Positions 1,099-13,624 of a stretch of DNA of 27,017 nucleotides are shown piece after piece. Each line of letters starts with the position of its first letter. Within the stretch, counting starts at the first letter, position 1. The stretch lies in the UHGV virus genome UHGV-0430895. One strand, 5' to 3'. Below the pieces are notes generated by a model. That model was not told the origin of the DNA and did no database searches. It saw only the letters and a list, made by a program, of their open reading frames with translations. The stretch comes from a virus. Made by a program: the position numbers and the translations under genes.

Positions 1099-1405
1099 AA
1101 CAATGCCACCCTGTCGGTCATCAATCCTCTGCTTAATGGCAACGACAATTGTCCGACTTAAATCACAAATCAGACACATGACATAACAGGGCTTGCGAGG
1201 TAACACATCGTCCGGCTTCTTCCACCATCGCACCGGACCAGCGACCATGAGGGGACAACGCCGCGCTCCGTTAACGCGGTAAACCCCGGTGTGTATCGTT
1301 TTTGATTACCCCCGCACACTCGCGCAGAGGAGTCTCCCTGTCGGGCTGCGGTCTCTGTTAATGCAGGAATACGGCGACAATACCGCGCATGGATAATAAG
1401 GTCAC

Positions 1406-1630
1406 TCAACACACTGGCTGTAATGCAGCGGATACCATGCGGCATTTAGCGGCATTCATCGTACACTCAACGGTTAGCGCTTCATTCGTGGCATTCACCT
1501 GAAAGGTCCGGGTGTGTAATTGCGTACATTTACCACTGAACGAACCTTCAACAAGAACACGACCACGCTGCAAAATACGGAACGGAATTGTTCCCTGAAA
1601 AGGCTTTACGGTTACCAGTAATTTCTTCAT
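1406..1630 (-). CDS. 74-aa hypothetical protein (paralog A), translationally coupled to Rz
   Basis: ATG overlaps the Rz stop (ATGA overlap) and a GGAGG SD precedes it. N-terminal 45 aa resemble the ORF at 8150..8374 (MKKLxVTxxPF...FRxxQ...VLVE..F.GK.T...AT.E...V). Confidence 0.6.
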
Positions 1631-2354: not shown

Positions 2355-3050
2355 TCATGCTGCGGTAGCTCTCCATGCAGCAAGCAGACCAGCAATCCAC
2401 TGAACACCTTTTGGGGTGAATTTAACCTGCGTAAAAGCATGACCATTGCCCGCCTCGCCCGTTTTCACGCTAAACCGCCCCGCATCCAGGTGATGCGAGT
2501 AAGGCGTCATTTTTCCAGCGAGGCGATACATTATTCCGTTCTCCAACAAAAACAGCCGGAAATCGGTTTCTTTGATACCGAATAACTTAGCAACTTCCCG
2601 GAATCCCATCAGACCAGATGCTTCAACATAGTTATCAACAAATTCAGCCTTCGGCGCTGCTATTGCCAGTTGATTTTCCAGCTCTGCTTTCTGTTCTGCC
2701 AGTTTTGCCGCAAATCGCAACGCCTCAGGTAAAGTCCGGGGGATCTGAATACCATGCATCGCTTTGAGTCTTGCCAGCACAGAACGACGAACGGCCTTTG
2801 ACTCCCTCATGCCAACGAGCATCATCTGGTCAAAATCCAGATCATAGTATGCCGTTCTTGTCTGGTTATTGTTTAACCGGAATTTTTTCCAGGTTACCTC
2901 AAGCTCAAGTTCGTCCTCAATTTTTGCAAGGAACTTACGCGGTTCATGAGGTGGTTTCCCTGCCTCAACCCGGATGGGGTTAATAATGTTATTCAGAAAA
3001 TCCAGACTACTCATGGATATTTCATGATCGACAGAAATCATCTCTTTCAT
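2355..3050 (-). CDS. Phage antirepressor-like protein with KilA-C (ANT) domain
   Basis: The central/C-terminal region (LPEALRFAAKLAEQKAELENQLAIAAPKAEFVDNYVEASGLMGFREVAKLFGI) matches the KilA-C antirepressor domain pattern. A gene at this position between R and Rz is known in Stx-type phages. Confidence 0.6.
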   Translation of the reverse strand: MKEMISVDHEISMSSLDFLNNIINPIRVEAGKPPHEPRKFLAKIEDELELEVTWKKFRLNNNQTRTAYYDLDFDQMMLVGMRESKAVRRSVLARLKAMHGIQIPRTLPEALRFAAKLAEQKAELENQLAIAAPKAEFVDNYVEASGLMGFREVAKLFGIKETDFRLFLLENGIMYRLAGKMTPYSHHLDAGRFSVKTGEAGNGHAFTQVKFTPKGVQWIAGLLAAWRATAA

Positions 3051-3322
3051 GGTTGATTCCTTTTAGTGATGAACCCTGCGCACAGGAATAACCAGCCCAA
3101 AGAGGGTTAACCAAACCACTGCCGGTTATCCACCAGGGCTCATCCTGAAAGGTTCTTTGGTTTATTTACGCTTGTGCGAAGCGCAGAAATGACAAAGGCA
3201 CCATTACGGTGCCTCTGCGTGAAATAATGATCATGACTTTATCCACTTACATTTTGCCAGTTCGCAGGATTTCGTGTTATCCGTCCGCGTGAGTAAACGT
3301 CATTTTTCAGCAAAATATTCTG

Positions 3323-3860: not shown

Positions 3861-4076
3861 TCACTCTCCCCGGGCTGCCTTACGACGATCCTCTCTGATT
3901 TTGAAATACAGATTAGTGAGGTATGTCAGCAAACCAAAAAACAGACTCCCCAGCACTCCAATAGCCGTCCACTGTGAGGGCGTGACATTATCCAGTATCT
4001 GAAACAACCAGTATCCCGTCCCCGCCGCCGATGTGCTGTACGACACACCCGTTGCTATTTTTTCCATCTGATACAT
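3861..4076 (-). CDS. S: Pinholin, S21-type, with dual start (antiholin 71 aa / holin 68 aa)
   Basis: [26 protein letters not shown]...[12 protein letters not shown]...[22 protein letters not shown] is near-identical in pattern to phage 21 S21-68/71. Met1 and Met4 give the dual-start motif. Confidence 0.85.
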
Positions 4077-4156
4077 GCCCTCGCCTCCCGACTGACGGAA
4101 GTCCGCAGAAACAACAGGGTCACCCGCCTCCTGACCGGTGACCTGCATATCACCCC

Positions 4157-4695: not shown

Positions 4696-6609
4696 TCAGG
4701 CTGCCGGGCTGTTCACTTCCACTGTCAGCGTGTCAATCCACGTTTCATACGTGGCTGTATTCGACGCATCCGTCAGAATAAGCGTGTTTTCCTGTCCTTC
4801 ATATTTAAAACAGGACAGCTGTGTGGTCGGGGCTTTTACCGTATCCACGTATGGCGTCACCGTGTTCTGGCCTCCTCCCGGATATACCAGCTCCAGTGTG
4901 TGCCATTCACTGTTCAGCGTACCGTATCCCGCAACACGCGTCTGCGCTGCACCATTGTGCATCAGACTGAGTTTGCCATCCGTTTCTGTCTGCAGATAGA
5001 ACGCCACCAGGAACGGATGGGTACCGTCCGCCTTATTGGCAAATTCCACACCTTCCGGGATATCGTTTTCCTTCAGCTGCAGATACATCGCCAGGGCTAT
5101 CTGTTTTCCGTTCGCACTCCCTGGTATTTTAAAGCGACAGGTGATTTTGCCGCCGTTTTTCAGCAGTTCCGCCGCATTTGCCACTTCACGGGTCAGCTTC
5201 AGGTTCATTGCTTCATCCTGGCTCAGTTTCAGCGCCCGCCCGGAAGTACTGCTTTCATCCTGTACCACTTCCGCCTTACCTTCGCTCAGCGTCCAGCCCT
5301 GTTCGGCATAAGCACCTTCACTTTCTGCACCGCTGTACAGGGTGGTAACGTTACTCTTCGGTTTTGCCGGTTCCGGATAGTTTTCCGTTATATCTCCACC
5401 GGCAAGGAACGGTCCGTTACGCCCTGCATGGGTCAGGATTGCGGTGGCTATACGGTCCGGCAGGATGCCGCGACGGGCCCAGGAACTGAAATGCATGGCG
5501 CGTGTCGGGTTCGTCCAGTTACCCGCCGTGCGTGATGCTGCACCGTAATAATTTGCTTCGGGCACATCCGGATCTTCTGCCGGGTTATTGGTCGGAACAT
5601 TCGCACCGGTCTCATCCTTCATGAGTTCGACAAAATGCACATTCGGCTCACTGTTTTTACGGTACGCGCCATAAACCAGGCTGTATTGTGTCGGGTACTG
5701 CTGCTTCCACCAGAAGGTGGTATCACCACATACCCACGGTACGCGGGCCGCATCACCACCCAGACACTGACCGGCATATGCCGCCAGATCGGTACGGAAC
5801 TGCTTCACCATGGCCGTAAACAACGCCGGATGCCCCGTGTAACCTGAAGACATACAGTCACCCTCGCCCTGCATCCAGTACACGGCCAGCAGGACGTTTT
5901 TCGCGTTCTTTTCAAGGGCGGCCTTCGTGCGGGCAATTAAATCCATGTACAACGGTTTACCCACACCCCAGCGGGAGGAATCCGCTGTTGCCCCCGTCTC
6001 CGGGTTATAGGTACCCTCATCACGATCGGTAAACGCAGAGCCGCCACGACTGCACGGCACAATCAGGATCCCCGCATTAACCGGAATATAGGGCAGAAGA
6101 CGTTTGGCAATATGCAGGCCGTGCCCGACACAACCATACTGACCACGGGAAAGGTCCGCGTTGGGGTGATTTTTGGCACTCATGTCTTCAACGTCATGGA
6201 GACAGTGATCGGCCTCAATCACATCGTTGTATTTACAGGCAGCACCACCCGGTCGGACCACACTGCGGCGGGCCAGCTGCTTAATGCGTGGATCGGGACG
6301 GTCGTAGCTGTCAGGCAGGGGCATACCTTCGCCGGTTGCCATATTGTTGGACTGACCTGCGGTGACCAGCACATAGTAATATTCAGGCTCACGGGTCGGC
6401 TCGCTCACCACCGCACCGCCTTCCTCCGGTGTCACCACGACAGGCGTGGTGACATCCCCTTCTGCGGCAATCGCCTGCATCAGGGTATAAGGGGTAATGG
6501 CGACCGGGCTGCCAAACGGCTGCCAGCCTTCCTTCAGTTTTTGAGTCAGTCGCTCCGCAAGGTCTGACGGCGACGCCGCCCTGACCACGTCATAGTGTTT
6601 AAATGCCAT
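4696..6609 (-). CDS. nanS-p: NanS-p type 9-O-acetyl-sialic acid esterase (DUF1737 N-terminal domain + SASA/SGNH esterase)
   Basis: 637 aa; N-terminus MAFKHYDVV...LKEGWQPFGSPV (DUF1737) and central GQSNNMATG esterase motif. This is the gene normally found between stxB and S in Stx phages. Confidence 0.8.
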   Translation of the reverse strand: MAFKHYDVVRAASPSDLAERLTQKLKEGWQPFGSPVAITPYTLMQAIAAEGDVTTPVVVTPEEGGAVVSEPTREPEYYYVLVTAGQSNNMATGEGMPLPDSYDRPDPRIKQLARRSVVRPGGAACKYNDVIEADHCLHDVEDMSAKNHPNADLSRGQYGCVGHGLHIAKRLLPYIPVNAGILIVPCSRGGSAFTDRDEGTYNPETGATADSSRWGVGKPLYMDLIARTKAALEKNAKNVLLAVYWMQGEGDCMSSGYTGHPALFTAMVKQFRTDLAAYAGQCLGGDAARVPWVCGDTTFWWKQQYPTQYSLVYGAYRKNSEPNVHFVELMKDETGANVPTNNPAEDPDVPEANYYGAASRTAGNWTNPTRAMHFSSWARRGILPDRIATAILTHAGRNGPFLAGGDITENYPEPAKPKSNVTTLYSGAESEGAYAEQGWTLSEGKAEVVQDESSTSGRALKLSQDEAMNLKLTREVANAAELLKNGGKITCRFKIPGSANGKQIALAMYLQLKENDIPEGVEFANKADGTHPFLVAFYLQTETDGKLSLMHNGAAQTRVAGYGTLNSEWHTLELVYPGGGQNTVTPYVDTVKAPTTQLSCFKYEGQENTLILTDASNTATYETWIDTLTVEVNSPAA

Positions 6610-6834: not shown

Positions 6835-7108
6835 TATCCATAAGAAAGCCCCTCCGGAGAGGGGCTGACGCTGCGTATCTGTATCATCATGCGCATGGTG
6901 CCGGGTGCCTCCCGGTGAGTTCAGTATCAGCACCTGAACCCGCACAGAAAGGATAAGGCTAAACGAAAACACCTGTACTGATATGCCCCGCCGCTGAGGG
7001 GGATTCACCATGCGACGCGATTTTTAACAAATTCGCAGTCAGTCAGACAATAATCAACTTGCTGAATTGTGAGGTATTTAAAAATTTCACCAGCTAACTG
7101 ATACCAGG

Positions 7109-7273
7109 CTAACCGTCTGGTGTTTTCTTTTTCAGCAACGGGAAAACAACAACCACAACACCAGCCACCAGCATCCCATCTGCCAGCACTGACATTATCC
7201 GGCTGCTGAAGTCCACCATCACGACAAGAAACAGCAGAACTACCACAATGGCCAGGCGCAGTTTTACCGTCAC
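7109..7273 (-). CDS. Candidate 54-aa two-TM membrane protein, translationally coupled to the TerB-like gene (below ORF-track cutoff)
   Basis: GTG start overlaps the TerB-like stop (GTGA overlap), with GGAG 8 nt upstream. Translation (M)TVKLRLAIVVVLLFLVVMVDFSSRIMSVLADGMLVAGVVVVVFPLLKKKTPDG, verified codon by codon. Confidence 0.45.
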   Translation of the reverse strand: MTVKLRLAIVVVLLFLVVMVDFSSRIMSVLADGMLVAGVVVVVFPLLKKKTPDG

Positions 7274-7701
7274 AGGTGATTCTCCAGACGAAGGCCCAGA
7301 ACACCGGCTATCTCTTCCAGCACCTTGCGCTCTTCCGGCTCAATTTCGCCATCTGATTCCGCAATGGCCACCGCCACATCCAGTACATCTTCCGCTTCTC
7401 GCATATCGTGTTTCACGTCCTCGATCTCACGTAACGCTGCACGACGACCTATTTTGAAGTTGGTGTCCAGCTGACCAGTGATGGTTGCGCTAATCGCATT
7501 AATTTCTGACGTAAACGCTGACAATGCAGGTTGGTTACGCAGTACCTGTTCGATCTTCGCTTTCTCGGAAGCCTCACACTCACCATCTGCATAAGCCACC
7601 AGGTATGCAGCGTTAATCACCGCCTGGGCCAGATCGCGTTTTTCAAACTTTTTAATTTCCGCTGCCGCTCTGCGGGTTTTCTTTTTGAAGATTCCAAACA
7701 T
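7270..7701 (-). CDS. TerB-like (tellurite-resistance TerB domain) protein, prophage moron
   Basis: 144 aa from MFGIFKKK. Helical, acidic, with AAYLVAYADGECEASEKAKIEQVL and IAESDGEIEPEERKVLEEIAGVLGL repeats typical of the TerB fold. Confidence 0.6.
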   Translation of the reverse strand: MFGIFKKKTRRAAAEIKKFEKRDLAQAVINAAYLVAYADGECEASEKAKIEQVLRNQPALSAFTSEINAISATITGQLDTNFKIGRRAALREIEDVKHDMREAEDVLDVAVAIAESDGEIEPEERKVLEEIAGVLGLRLENHL

Positions 7702-7833
7702 CGTGACGTTCCTTTGGGTGGGTGAGCCAACGCCCGGGAGCGATCTGCCCACAGAGAAAGTCACACTGACCACTCCGTAAGCTCACCCCCGAAAGGCTCT
7801 GTGGTTGATATGCGCCGGGCGTGGCGCGGATAC

Positions 7834-7856
7834 AAAAAAGGCCGCCAATAGCGACC
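7834..7856 (-). terminator. Intrinsic terminator (minus strand) downstream of the 68-aa ORF
   Basis: Minus-strand GGTCGC-TATTG-GCGGCC followed by TTTTTT. A near-identical copy lies at 8427..8450. Confidence 0.55.
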
Positions 7857-7890
7857 TCAGTTACGGGATTATTCTGGGGTTAAACGACTG

Positions 7891-8097
7891 TTACTCCCAG
7901 ACAAAATCATCACTTCCTGTTCGATGCGAGCCATAGTGAACCTCGTACTTATCTCCCATCTTTCTTGCTTCCGTTTCTGCGTCTTCCTCTGTCGCAAAAA
8001 CCCCAACAAGATGCCAGGGCGAGCTTCTTACCACAGCCCAACCTTTAACCCATCCTTTGTTGTCCTTATCTTCCATTAACACTTCAGAAACAAACAT
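7891..8097 (-). CDS. 68-aa hypothetical protein
   Basis: ORF MFVSEVLMEDKDNKGWVKGWAVV...; no family recognised. Bracketed by the two terminator copies together with the 8150..8374 ORF. Confidence 0.45.
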   Translation of the reverse strand: MFVSEVLMEDKDNKGWVKGWAVVRSSPWHLVGVFATEEDAETEARKMGDKYEVHYGSHRTGSDDFVWE

Positions 8098-8149
8098 ATT
8101 TATCTCCTTGTGGGTACCCGGAGATATTTTATGATTGCTCCCGGTCAGA

Positions 8150-8374
8150 TCAATAAAGTGGCTTCAATTTTGCCTTAATGATCAAATCAGGGTGATTGAC
8201 GGAATCGTACACCACCTCAATATTTTCATCCGTGGCGTCGATAAGATATTCTTTTACATAAGGACCTGTTGATTTTCCATGAAATACATCTTCAACAAGT
8301 ACACTCTCCCCCTGAACAACACGAAAACTAACTTCTGTTTCGAACGGACCAATCGTCACCATCAGTTTTTTCAC
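8150..8374 (-). CDS. 74-aa hypothetical protein (paralog B of 1406..1630)
   Basis: GTG start with strong AGGAGG SD. Shares the N-terminal motif set with paralog A. Located right after the tRNA cluster, in the slot where stx sits in Stx phages. Confidence 0.55.
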   Translation of the reverse strand: MKKLMVTIGPFETEVSFRVVQGESVLVEDVFHGKSTGPYVKEYLIDATDENIEVVYDSVNHPDLIIKAKLKPLY

Positions 8375-8426: not shown

Positions 8427-8450
8427 AAAAAAGGCCCGCAAAAGCGAGCC
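8427..8450 (-). terminator. Intrinsic terminator (minus strand) downstream of the tRNA cluster
   Basis: Minus-strand GGCTCGC-TTTT-GCGGGCC followed by TTTTTT; homologous to the terminator at 7834..7856. Confidence 0.55.
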
Positions 8451-8463
8451 AGGTAAATAAATA

Positions 8464-8540
8464 TGGCGCGTTGTACTGGATTCGAACCAGTGACCGATTG
8501 CTTAGAAGGCAATTGCTCTGTCCGGCTGAGCTAACAACGC
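8464..8540 (-). tRNA. tRNA-Arg (anticodon TCT)
   Basis: Manual cloverleaf: acceptor GCGTTGT/ACAACGC, D-arm GCTC...GAGC, anticodon stem ATTGC/GCAAT with loop CTTCTAA, T-loop TTCGAAT, 3' CCA encoded. Confidence 0.8.
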
Positions 8541-8553
8541 AGGGTACGGATAA

Positions 8554-8630
8554 TGGACCGCCATCGAGGACTCGAACCCCGCGCAACCAGCTTCGAAGGC
8601 TGGCGCTCTATCCCGATGAGCTAATGGCGG
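8554..8630 (-). tRNA. tRNA-Arg (anticodon TCG)
   Basis: Manual cloverleaf: anticodon stem CCAGC/GCTGG with loop CTTCGAA, T-arm CGGGG-TTCGAGT-CCTCG, 3' CCA encoded. Exact ends are uncertain by a few nt. Confidence 0.7.
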
Positions 8631-8637
8631 TATGTGA

Positions 8638-8713
8638 TGGTGGCCCTTGCTGGATTTGAACCAGCGACCTGGCGATTATGAGTCGCTCGCTCTCACCACT
8701 GAGCTAAAGGGCC
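8638..8713 (-). tRNA. tRNA with CAT anticodon (Ile2/Met type, ileZ-like of Stx phages)
   Basis: Manual cloverleaf: acceptor GGCCCTT, D-arm GCTCAGTGGTGAGAGC, anticodon loop CTCATAA, T-loop TTCAAAT, 3' CCA encoded. Same position as ileZ-argN-argO in Stx phages. Confidence 0.75.
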
Positions 8714-8753: not shown

Positions 8754-9812
8754 TCATCCGTTCTGACTGATAAAATCCTGAACTTCCCTGACTGTCTGCT
8801 CAAAACGTCCGGTCTCCAGCTCAACACCAATCGCCCGACGTCCCAGTGACAGCGCCGCTTTTACCGTTGAACCTGACCCCATGAAAAAATCTGCAATCAG
8901 GTCACCCGGACGACTGCTCGCACTGATTATCTGCCGCAGCATTTCTGCCGGTTTTTCGCACGGATGTTTCCCGGGATAGTACTGCACCGGTTTATGCGTC
9001 CACACATCCGTGTACGGCACCTGCGCCGTCACGCCAAAATACCGCCGCAGATGCTTATATTCACTCTGCAGTTCCGCATACTGCCGGTTCAGTGAAGTAT
9101 ACGTCTCCAGCAGCTGGTGGTGGGGCTTTTCCAGTTCACCCCGCTGATGCTTCTCTTCTGCCACCCGGGCAAACAGCGCCTGTAATTTCAGATAATCACT
9201 TTCGTCCGGTAGCTGCCACTGACTGGCACTGAACCAGTGCGACACCATGTTTTTCTTTCCTGTGGCATCCACTATCTGTTTTGCCGTTATCCCCAGGGCA
9301 GCGCGCGCATCACGAAAGTAAGCAATCAGCGGGGCCATCACATGCTGTTTCAGTGCCCTGCCCTTCGCCTCATACCCGGCATCTTTCGGACGATACGGCC
9401 CCTGATAATGTTCCGCGAACAGAATGCGCTCTGTGGCGGGGAAATACGCCCTCAGGCTTTCCTTGTTGCACCCGTTCCAGCGTCCGGACGGCTTCGCCCA
9501 GATGATATGGTTCAGTACGTTAAACCGCTCACGCATCATGATTTCGGTGTCAGATGCCAGGCGATGCCCACAGAACAGGTAAAGGCTTCCGGCAGGTTTT
9601 AACACCCGCCAGAACTGCGCCAGACACTGGTCCAGCCACTTCAGGTAATCATCGTCGCCCTTCCACTGGTTATCCCAGCCCTCAGGCTTCACTTTAAAGT
9701 ACGGCGGGTCCGTGACTATCAGGTCAACAGAATTTTCGGGTAACGACCGGATAAATTCCAGGCAGTCGGCGTTGATTAACTCACAACTGGATATTTTTAC
9801 AGTATTAAGCAT
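8754..9812 (-). CDS. Orphan DNA N6-adenine/N4-cytosine methyltransferase (beta-class, DPPY)
   Basis: 352 aa; N-terminal catalytic motif IV (LIVTDPPYF) and C-terminal SAM-binding motif I (DFFMGSGST). No adjacent restriction endonuclease. Confidence 0.8.
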   Translation of the reverse strand: MLNTVKISSCELINADCLEFIRSLPENSVDLIVTDPPYFKVKPEGWDNQWKGDDDYLKWLDQCLAQFWRVLKPAGSLYLFCGHRLASDTEIMMRERFNVLNHIIWAKPSGRWNGCNKESLRAYFPATERILFAEHYQGPYRPKDAGYEAKGRALKQHVMAPLIAYFRDARAALGITAKQIVDATGKKNMVSHWFSASQWQLPDESDYLKLQALFARVAEEKHQRGELEKPHHQLLETYTSLNRQYAELQSEYKHLRRYFGVTAQVPYTDVWTHKPVQYYPGKHPCEKPAEMLRQIISASSRPGDLIADFFMGSGSTVKAALSLGRRAIGVELETGRFEQTVREVQDFISQNG

Positions 9813-10403: not shown

Positions 10404-10946
10404 TTATCGAAATGAATCATGCATAGGTACATAAAGCATGTGTTCAGCCACGGCTAACCAACCTGCAATACGTTTCTCACATGTGCTGAAGCACCATTCC
10501 GGGTGAGTACGATTTAAACATTCTGCCATTTTTCTCTTACTCATTCCCCGTCCTTCGTACCTTTGCCGGAGAATATTGATTAGCCCGGGATATTCCCCAA
10601 GCACCTCACTGATGACGCGATCAATAATCAACGCCTCTGTGTCTGTACAATGTGACAACCAGCTCTTCTGCTTCCCTCTGGTCATATCCCGAAAAAATGC
10701 CTCAAGTTCCGGTTTATCCAGCCCGGATTTCTTCATTCTGCGTAAAACCTCATTAACTGCTGTTTTTGTCAGCTTCTTCGAAACCAGTAACCGGTTAAAC
10801 ATATTTCCGGATTTACCCCCACCTATATACGACCACCGCCCCCACATCCGTAATTTCCCCTGGATCCAGACTGCTTCCAGCGTGTTCAGGCGTAAATGTT
10901 CGCCGCTTTTGCCTGTAATTTCCGGATATATCATATTTACGCTCAC
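10404..10946 (-). CDS. Putative late-gene antiterminator (Q-like)
   Basis: 180-aa ORF immediately upstream of the terminator/late region and downstream of rusA, the canonical Q position. The family assignment is by position and recollection of prophage antitermination proteins, not by a recognised motif. Confidence 0.5.
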   Translation of the reverse strand: MSVNMIYPEITGKSGEHLRLNTLEAVWIQGKLRMWGRWSYIGGGKSGNMFNRLLVSKKLTKTAVNEVLRRMKKSGLDKPELEAFFRDMTRGKQKSWLSHCTDTEALIIDRVISEVLGEYPGLINILRQRYEGRGMSKRKMAECLNRTHPEWCFSTCEKRIAGWLAVAEHMLYVPMHDSFR

Positions 10947-13223: not shown

Positions 13224-13379
13224 TTACTTCTCAGATTCGTAGTCTACGAAGACAGCGACCTCCGTCTGGCCGGTTCGGATTCGTACCTCGCAGAGGTCTT
13301 TCCTCGTTACCAGTGCCGTCACTATGACGGTTAAACAGATGACAATCAGGGCGATTAACATCGCCTTTTGCTGCTTCAT
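13224..13379 (-). CDS. hokD: Hok/Gef-family type I toxin (HokD/RelF-like)
   Basis: MKQQKAMLIALIVICLTVIVTALVTRKDLCEVRIRTGQTEVAVF... is essentially the HokD sequence as I recall it. The upstream region is strongly structured (9-bp inverted repeat CTGTCTGCC/GGCAGACAG). Confidence 0.8.
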   Translation of the reverse strand: MKQQKAMLIALIVICLTVIVTALVTRKDLCEVRIRTGQTEVAVFVDYESEK

Positions 13380-13624
13380 AGCCTGCTTCTCCTTGCCTTT
13401 CGGCACGTAAGAGGCTAACCTACATGTGCAAAGCATGAAATTGGCCTCAGATTAATGTTAAGCGTCTTGCCGGACGCGTAATGTTAACTGGGGCTTTTCT
13501 CTGTCTGCCTTACGGTGGCATGCCCGAGGCAGACAGCCTCAAGCACCCGCAGCAATTCTACTTAACTCTCGCTTTACCGCAAACCGTTTTTACCCGATAT
13601 GGGAATCCCCATATCGCAATGAAA

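Follow-up and report, generated by a model that had tools for sequence, protein, structure and literature searches.

What does a lambdoid prophage carry in the slot where Shiga toxin (Stx) phages hold stxA and stxB, and does this cargo behave as one unit? In the UHGV virus genome UHGV-0430895, analysed here as a stretch of 27,017 nucleotides (the window), four open reading frames (ORFs) lie on the minus strand within 8374..7109, between a trio of tRNA genes and nanS-p. A first-pass annotation had read them as a single cluster, comprising a small paralog, a 68-amino-acid protein, a TerB-like protein and a translationally coupled hydrophobic peptide with two transmembrane (TM) segments, and had suggested a membrane-associated defence or stress module. 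All four ORFs are real, and they make up two unrelated, already catalogued two-gene cargo cassettes, one consisting of p74 and p68, the other of a terminator-like hairpin, a leader, tciA and tciB. The gene content is ordinary, adding one more member of the TciAB pair and two orphan small genes. The new part is a conserved, covarying and apparently undescribed leader RNA that precedes tciA and other phage cargo genes.

Two cassettes in one slot

The two cassettes comprise the following features, from the last tRNA onwards:

8433..8450, minus strand: terminator-like hairpin copy 1 (GGCTCGCTTTTGCGGGCC followed by a T-run), immediately behind the last tRNA; marks the junction of the p74-p68 insertion on the left
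8150..8374, minus strand: p74, a 74-amino-acid protein of PHROG 2571; GTG start, AGGAGG Shine-Dalgarno sequence
7891..8097, minus strand: p68, a 68-amino-acid protein of PHROG 4280; ATG start, GGAG Shine-Dalgarno sequence, conserved SPWHLxGV and YGSxRxGSDDF motifs
7838..7858, minus strand: second, degenerate copy of the terminator-like hairpin; marks the junction of the p74-p68 insertion on the right and the upstream edge of the tciAB cassette
7702..7833, minus strand: leader RNA, class A; helices P1 and P2, apical hairpin, CCUUU complementary to AAAGG, and GGGGUGAGC/GCUCACCC pairing
7270..7701, minus strand: tciA, a 143-amino-acid TerB-domain protein; ATG at 7701, AAGGA Shine-Dalgarno sequence, two DGxxxxxE motifs
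7109..7273, minus strand: tciB, a 54-amino-acid DUF3927 peptide with two TM segments; GTG overlapping the tciA stop (GTGA), GGAG 8 nucleotides upstream

The second cassette often occurs without the first. The segment 7857..7124, spanning the hairpin, leader, tciA and tciB, is present without p74-p68 in about 1000 further E. coli genomes, including O157:H7 86-24. Annotation shows all four genes in this arrangement in 93 of 5426 complete E. coli genomes, which is also the number that contain most of the p74-p68 segment. Among 112 related loci with a TciA match, drawn from viral contigs and the genomes of 22 species, the order tRNA-tciAB was found in 59, tRNA-p74-p68-tciAB in 17, and tciAB without a nearby tRNA in 29. 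Homology to relatives breaks at about position 7857, and to several of them it ends at the end of tciB. Relatives lacking p74-p68 have a single hairpin between the last tRNA and the leader, and the window has two, flanking p74-p68. Since the hairpin is duplicated on both sides of the pair and single in relatives, p74-p68 appears to have been inserted by recombination at the terminator hairpin. The first cassette would be a pair of small soluble proteins that entered at the hairpin after the tRNAs, and the second, with its own hairpin and leader, is the phage P1-type TerB module.

The p74-p68 pair is also a conserved unit in itself. In phage mEp237, a p74 relative (35%, E=1e-14) lies directly after Rz and is followed by a p68 relative (65%). 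Given the occurrence of tciAB on its own, the duplicated hairpin and the separate location of p74-p68 in mEp237, the four genes do not form the one cluster first proposed. The small ORFs are nevertheless conserved in relatives, as the 93 genomes with the four-gene layout attest. For tciA, the ratio of nonsynonymous to synonymous polymorphism (pN/pS) is 0.046 across 47 distinct alleles (pS = 0.38), which indicates strong purifying selection; p74, p68 and tciB have too few substitutions for the ratio to be meaningful.

A structured leader RNA upstream of tciA

Between the hairpin and the tciA start codon lie approximately 131-135 non-coding nucleotides that are conserved beyond the gene they precede. 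This leader shows 98-100% identity between many loci in which tciA agrees at only 67-80% of third-codon positions, and remains 74-82% identical where the third positions are saturated (Franconibacter, Erwinia jumbo phage). It is still recognisable upstream of a TciA that is only ~41% identical to that of the window. The element is present in 41 phage records, where the full-length matches have no annotation beneath them, and of 120 pattern matches in viral contigs, 119 stand ahead of tciA or of a tciA copy with a frameshift. No Rfam 15 family matched 7600..7950 or 2990..3280 at E<=10, a scan of the whole window at gathering thresholds returned only STnc100, sok and tRNAs, and limited literature searches found no description of the leader.

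Comparative folding identifies long-range pairing within the element. RNAalifold, run on two MAFFT alignments of 17 and 66 sequences, selected a long-range helix, P1, together with helix P2 in both, and in the 17-sequence alignment an apical hairpin as well. In these helices, 97% of cells are paired, versus 33-48% when the partners are slid. Compensatory changes join segments about 110 nucleotides apart: the pair 27/134, for instance, is C-G in 41 sequences and U-A in 23. Across classes, P1 takes the forms CGCCCG/CGGGCG, CGCUCG/UGAGCG, CGCACA/UGUGCG and UCUCAC/GUGAGA, while P2 occurs as CCACAGAG/CUCUGUGG, CCGUAGAG/CUCUACGG and CCAAAGA/UCUUUGG, with a variant also given as CCGTAGAG/CTCTACGG. 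In an alignment (A8) that was itself fitted to the covariance model, 14 of 23 pairs changed on both sides and the observed covariation was reached in 0 of 500 shuffles (0.339 versus 0.131 in shuffles and at most 0.081 with partners slid). The P1 core contributes 6 of 7 pairs changed on both sides, with 95.7% paired, and P2 contributes 6 of 8, with 93.3% paired. G-U pairs occur on the sense strand of the gene only. The helices are therefore kept by compensatory changes across diverged copies, the hallmark of a structured cis-regulatory RNA.

Other conserved elements may link the leader to the ribosome-binding site. CCUUUCA is retained in every class, as is AAAAGGAA immediately ahead of the start codon, and the register of the leader to the ribosome-binding site and ATG is fixed. 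CCUUU can pair with AAAGG of the ribosome-binding site in 99% of cells, and GGGGUGAGC can pair with GCUCACCC next to it, the equivalent in class B being GAUGAGCCC/GGGUUCAUC. Because these pairings cross P1 and P2, the leader is likely to be pseudoknotted or to switch folds. The G-run that opens GGGGUGAGC (window ~7784..7788, minus strand) varies from 4 to ~12 G among near-identical leaders (loci L003, L044, L137 and L194), and could represent slipped-strand variation that alters pairing near the ribosome-binding site.

The leader was at first taken to be specific to TciA. A covariance model built from its helices and searched for further copies overturned this idea, as it revealed other downstream genes, one of them in the window itself:

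3048..3190, minus strand: leader copy 2, class B (70.5 bits), ending at the ATG of a KilAC antirepressor gene at 3050..2355
about 3215..3196, minus strand: terminator-like hairpin preceding the class B copy

The KilAC antirepressor gene is inserted between the endolysin gene and Rz. Further leader classes precede a Bro-type antirepressor, a 246-amino-acid orphan and gp62 of mEp237. Together, the tciA leader and the 3190..3048 copy may belong to an undescribed family of pseudoknot-capable, cis-acting RNAs that travels with the cargo cassettes of enterobacterial phages, both lambdoid and jumbo, and serves as a portable gate for translation or processing, a proposal to which we would assign slightly less than an even chance.

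The leader resembles others that sequester the ribosome-binding site, such as translational riboswitches and RNA thermometers: it abuts the start codon on the 5' side, contains helices that covary and a conserved pyrimidine stretch complementary to the ribosome-binding site, and allows alternative or pseudoknotted pairings. It differs from them in having no Rfam match or known ligand, and its family precedes unrelated genes (TerB, two types of antirepressor and orphans), which would be unusual for a metabolite riboswitch. Since the downstream genes are unrelated, a gene-specific metabolite is disfavoured, and a generic expression gate or processing signal fits better. An ion, temperature or a phage factor could be the signal at which the leader exposes or hides the ribosome-binding site. 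A Mn2+ riboswitch of the yybP-ykoY type, considered by analogy with TerC genes, was set aside in view of the missing Rfam match and the unrelated genes that the element also precedes.

Some results temper the RNA interpretation. The minimum-energy fold of the window leader does not reproduce the helices found by comparison, and sequence conservation by itself makes several helices that cross one another more than 90% pairable. Occlusion of the ribosome-binding site is a possibility that the complementary stretches suggest. The conservation may also have another origin, in that the leader could act at the DNA level, as a recombination linker comparable to the promoter-early stem-loops of T4, as a promoter or operator, or as an RNase processing site. 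Leader identity of 98-100% beside a diverged tciA is more easily obtained by recurrent recombination than by selection on every base; moreover, the leader sits exactly at mosaic junctions and in front of unrelated cargo genes, contains a GCGCC-N6-GGCGC palindrome that could be an operator, and receives insertions of an IS110-family element. Against such a role as the primary one stand the compensatory changes in P1 and P2 between segments ~110 nucleotides apart, the 14 of 23 pairs changed on both sides, the restriction of G-U pairs to the sense strand and the fixed register to the ribosome-binding site and ATG, and we consider it rather unlikely as the explanation. Recombination-linker and RNA roles could coexist, and the near-identity may partly reflect recombination at the junction.

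A separate observation concerns prophages of the PPompW type (LC567818, LC567822 and others), in which only the first 49 nucleotides of the leader match and the IS110-family element ISEc20 is annotated at that place. The leader may be a preferred insertion target for ISEc20.

TciA and TciB, a pair named in phage P1

The TerB ORF obtained mechanically extends over 7773..7270 from a GTG; the real start is the ATG at 7701, in agreement with the 432-nucleotide genes annotated by the Prokaryotic Genome Annotation Pipeline (PGAP) in relatives. Profile searches upheld the TerB assignment. TciA matches Pfam TerB (PF05099) over residues 26-138 with E=6.6e-16 and 59.1 bits (cut-off 24.4), and PHROG 632 over its full length with E=9.7e-69. 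The sequence match to the solved TerB structure 2JXU is modest (E=5e-8, 36.6 bits, 124 residues, positions 14-137). Weaker profile matches, below the family cut-offs, were obtained for DUF533 (E=5e-5) and the DjlA model (E=2e-6). The TerB domain has two helix-loop repeats whose acidic D-G-x5-E motifs form a predicted divalent-cation site. In TciA these motifs read AYADGECEASE and AESDGEIEPEE, and six phage homologs, with identities as low as 28%, all retain D39, E46, D117 and E124.

The coupled two-TM peptide was likewise identified correctly. TciB belongs to DUF3927 (PF13064, E=5.8e-22) and to PHROG 1470, labelled 'TciB-like', and its GTG start overlaps the tciA stop codon. Among 94 distinct sequences, conservation reaches 91% or more at each of the residues K4, R6, D21, F22, S24, D32, G33, P45 and K48, and hydropathy is maximal at residues 7-21 and 33-47. 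This pattern fits a predicted hairpin with both termini inside the cell (N-in/C-in) and acidic residues in the turn and within the second helix.

The two genes occur as a pair. In about 105 of the 112 loci, a TciB ORF follows tciA with a stop/start overlap of at most 4 nucleotides or a gap of at most 3. The pair occurs in Escherichia, Franconibacter, Pantoea, Pseudescherichia, Citrobacter, Enterobacter, Erwinia, Buttiauxella and others, and is found in about 1150 of the 5426 complete E. coli genomes as well as in P1-like phage-plasmids, N4-like phages and jumbo phages. Carriers include P1 itself, the virulent N4-like phages Pollock and SP-076, a Klebsiella phage and Erwinia jumbo phages. Between Pollock and the window, TciB is 53% identical and TciA only 28%. 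In Pseudomonas phage Lana the overlapping ORF encodes a different small hydrophobic protein, and Pseudomonas phage AF and Vibrio phage K479 lack such a partner.

The module is already known. The TciA/TciB pair was named in phage P1 in 2004 and has been annotated by homology since, in PHROGs and in GenBank, where homologs carry the labels tciA and tciB, for example in phage JLK-2012. In P1, as in the window, a TerB protein of ~141-143 amino acids (41%) is followed by a stop/start-coupled DUF3927 peptide (50%), with tRNA genes adjacent. P1 differs in possessing tciC, of which the window shows no trace (tblastn with P1 TciC gave nothing better than E=0.9) and which is also absent from lambdoid relatives. 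In addition, P1 has no structured leader, and its pair is placed behind ban promoters annotated as C1-controlled, not within a Q-dependent late operon. The tciABC genes constitute one hypervariable region of P1-like phage-plasmids (PMC9603915).

Similarity to the terZABCDE(F) operons (IncHI2 plasmid R478, the O157 tellurite island and Klebsiella; 2JXU) is limited to the PF05099 domain with its paired acidic motifs. In the window, terC, terD, terE, terZ and terA are missing from the vicinity, which holds the methylase gene, tRNAs, p74, p68, a small RNA (sRNA) and nanS-p instead, and the partner of TciA is a 54-amino-acid peptide, not the multi-pass TerC. Several genes are needed for the phenotypes that ter operons confer (tellurite, colicin and phage inhibition), and none of these is known for TciA. 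TerB has been reported in complex with the membrane protein TerC (PMC11003894). The weak matches to YebE/DUF533 and to the N-terminal domain of DjlA bring to mind TerB-type domains that are tethered to the inner membrane face; there the TM anchor is fused to the domain, whereas TciB would be a separate, coupled peptide.

Proposed function and rival readings

The combined evidence suggests a reading in which the slot holds two cassettes and the second encodes a membrane-tethered TerB module, made in the lytic phase, gated by the leader and acting in a Ter-like stress role; as a whole, we regard this as evenly poised between right and wrong. The overlapping genes tciA and tciB are translated as a coupled pair. 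TciB would insert into the inner membrane as an N-in/C-in helical hairpin, with the conserved K4/R6 and K48 in the cytoplasm, D21 in the turn and D32 inside the second TM segment, and would recruit or regulate TciA at the cytoplasmic face. TciA would supply the TerB domain, its two invariant DG-x5-E motifs providing the predicted divalent-cation site of the family. Most production of the pair would fall in lytic growth, when Q-antiterminated late transcription passes the flanking hairpins, and the leader would gate tciA translation by occluding the ribosome-binding site. In the infected cell the pair would buffer or sense membrane or ion stress in a Ter-like manner, and would not be a stand-alone abortive-infection defence. 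Judged from sequence, TciA and TciB may thus constitute a split, membrane-tethered TerB module.

Expression in the lytic phase is suggested by the position of the genes. The late region of the prophage is on the minus strand and starts with a Q-like gene at 10946..10404, and a promoter scan found no sigma-70-like promoter between the hairpin and tciA. Because the cassette opens with a terminator-like hairpin and has no recognisable promoter, lambdoid tciAB probably depends on Q-antiterminated late transcription. The P1 pair shares its strand with ban and follows the ban promoters and operator, which are annotated as C1-controlled; for this reason it is probably part of the repressor-controlled ban operon. 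The hairpin without a promoter, the ban position in P1 and carriage by virulent phages together favour a role in lytic growth over defence of the lysogen.

Several findings weigh against the proposal. No fusion protein or structure was found that would directly support contact between TciA and TciB, and there was no TerB-DUF3927 fusion among the best 120 of 420 DUF3927 matches. A single-sequence AlphaFold model of TciA is all-helical, at a predicted local distance difference test (pLDDT) score of 55, and was not used for a fold search, so that the fold assignment rests on sequence. Leader-linked tciA is frameshifted in 19 of 120 cases in viral contigs (e.g., L116, L120 and L125), with some copies truncated to MFGIFGKKSPQSGNGN. 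In P1, knock-down by CRISPR interference (CRISPRi) scored tciA, tciB and tciC as non-essential (PMC10695390); a 2022 survey of P1-like elements described the role of tci as unclear and reported loss of the tci operon from about half of the tested phage-plasmids of P1 subgroup 1 (PMC9603915). In the literature available to search, the CRISPRi essentiality screen is the only functional test of TciAB. The frequent frameshifts and remnants imply that tciAB often decays and is often dispensable in resident prophages. A K-12-like strain was seen to retain only a truncated DUF3927 remnant, next to iraM.

The defence role envisaged by the first-pass annotation would make the locus a lysogenic-conversion or superinfection-exclusion module that protects the lysogen, analogous to phage inhibition by ter operons. 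The location is a well-known site for cargo, the Shango defence system includes TerB-like domains, and the tciABC region is hypervariable in P1-like phage-plasmids. However, no PADLOC-DB v2 model matches the four proteins (the best matches are partial, with E=0.0038 and 0.014), the other ter genes are missing between flanks made up of a methylase gene, tRNAs and nanS-p, and carriers include virulent N4-like and jumbo phages that form no lysogens. The P1 copy, downstream of the C1-controlled ban promoters and operator, is presumably silent in the prophage state, and in the window a terminator precedes a cassette with no recognisable promoter. Protection of the lysogen consequently lacks direct support and appears quite unlikely. 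The earlier interpretation therefore holds for the slot, the paralog, the TerB domain and the coupled peptide, needs correction for the single cluster and is unsupported for the defence role.

Equally directed at immunity, phage TerB might serve in counter-defence, as a decoy or dominant-negative subunit against Ter-mediated inhibition by the host or against TerB-domain immune sensors at the membrane. Ter islands are common among the hosts of its virulent and temperate carriers (Escherichia, Klebsiella, Salmonella, Erwinia and Pantoea), and K-12 is not known to have one. The reported partnership of TerB with TerC (PMC11003894) and the non-essentiality of the genes on laboratory K-12 (PMC10695390) are compatible with such a decoy. 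However, the match between TciA and operon TerB is modest (E=5e-8, 36.6 bits), and mimicry alone would leave the strictly conserved TciB partner unexplained; we consider counter-defence very improbable. Most doubtful of all is a function in lysis timing, whereby a holin- or antiholin-like TciB would be coupled by TciA to the ionic state of the cell, preventing premature holin triggering. Class II holins share the size and the predicted N-in/C-in two-TM layout of TciB, and the lambdoid pair is situated in the late operon, upstream of the lysis cassette. Yet the pair is away from the lysis genes in P1, N4-like and jumbo phages, TciB has no match to a holin family in Pfam or PHROGs, the holin of this prophage is encoded elsewhere (4148..3861), and knock-down in P1 caused no plaque defect (PMC10695390).

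The p74-p68 pair

The p74 protein has a second copy in the window, as had been noted in calling it a small paralog:

1406..1630, minus strand: p74 paralog, coupled to the end of Rz by an ATGA overlap; post-lysis cargo slot

The two are 43% identical, and the copy at 1630..1406 directly follows Rz. In isolated phages, p74 relatives are mostly found at the end of Rz or just after it. The family is small, amounting to 49 clusters in an exhaustive profile search; large 'multi-repeat' matches of the p74 profile were repetitive or low-complexity proteins and were discarded as uninformative. Neither p74 nor p68 has sequence relatives in the PDB or a Pfam family above the cut-off, and p68 gave only a weak match to DUF7336 (E=0.005). 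Homologs of p68 are found in Salmonella, Xenorhabdus and Pseudomonas phages, with 24 invariant columns. An AlphaFold model of p68 built with 13 homologs reached a pLDDT of 57, too poor for a fold search.

Terminator-like hairpins bound each cassette, and the only promoter-like site on the right strand is that at 8153..8126. This sigma-70-like site (8126..8153, minus strand; TTGATC, a 16-nucleotide spacer and TAAAAT) lies at the end of p74, before p68; this site, p68 and the hairpin at 7858 would together form a complete moron. Sigma-70-like matches are no commoner than in shuffled sequence (4 found versus 4.3 expected). In Citrobacter braakii L102, a p68 homolog (52%) at 1198..1416 lies 1.6 kb upstream of a P1-type tciA with leader; the genes between them are unrelated, and the recurrence may merely reflect a shared cargo region.

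Genomic context

The slot is framed by the following features:

9812..8754, minus strand: DNA methyltransferase gene, upstream flank
8713..8464, minus strand: tRNA trio Met(CAT), Arg(TCG) and Arg(TCT), upstream flank
6836..7043, minus strand: STnc100-family sRNA (Rfam 133 bits, cut-off 47), with its own terminator at 6866..6847
6609..4696, minus strand: nanS-p, downstream flank

Stx2a phage LC567818 has flanks identical in kind, namely methylase, tRNA-Met, tRNA-Arg and tRNA-Arg on one side and nanS-p on the other, with stx2A and stx2B between them, and the placement of the cargo in the stx slot is thereby confirmed. The sRNA is a separate and separately mobile module upstream of nanS-p, outside tciAB. 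Its position (7043..6836), upstream of a sialate esterase gene, is that of the STnc100/PasD prophage sRNAs; STnc100 is related to PasD, which has been placed upstream of a sialate esterase gene (2026 preprint).

The first tRNA gene (8638..8713, minus strand) was typed as Met (CAT) by ARAGORN. For a near-identical gene in relatives RefSeq gives tRNA-Ile, and the GenBank record of phage Lahn2 names the counterpart ileZ; it is probably of the lysidine-modified Ile2 type. Adjacency of tciAB to tRNA genes recurs in unrelated types of phage, including P1, jumbo phages (Erwinia phage ChrisDB) and lambdoid phages (JLK-2012 and the window), and the tRNA sets near tciAB differ among the lambdoid phages. 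This adjacency may reflect a shared cargo hotspot or a functional link. In the early region, a match to sok antitoxin RNA (Rfam, 117 bits) at 13374..13548 on the minus strand indicates a type I toxin-antitoxin locus of the hok/sok type.

Significance

TciAB is among the most widely shared accessory modules of enterobacterial phages, and for twenty years its name has been borrowed by homology. The strict coupling of the two genes, their carriage by virulent phages and the absence of other ter genes narrow the hypotheses for TciAB and point to concrete residues. The leader RNA matters more than this gene content. Should it prove to be a genuine regulator, phages would have in it a reusable expression signal for varied cargo, including antirepressors, located here in the slot that controls cargo of the Shiga toxin type, and it would merit a new entry in the RNA family database.

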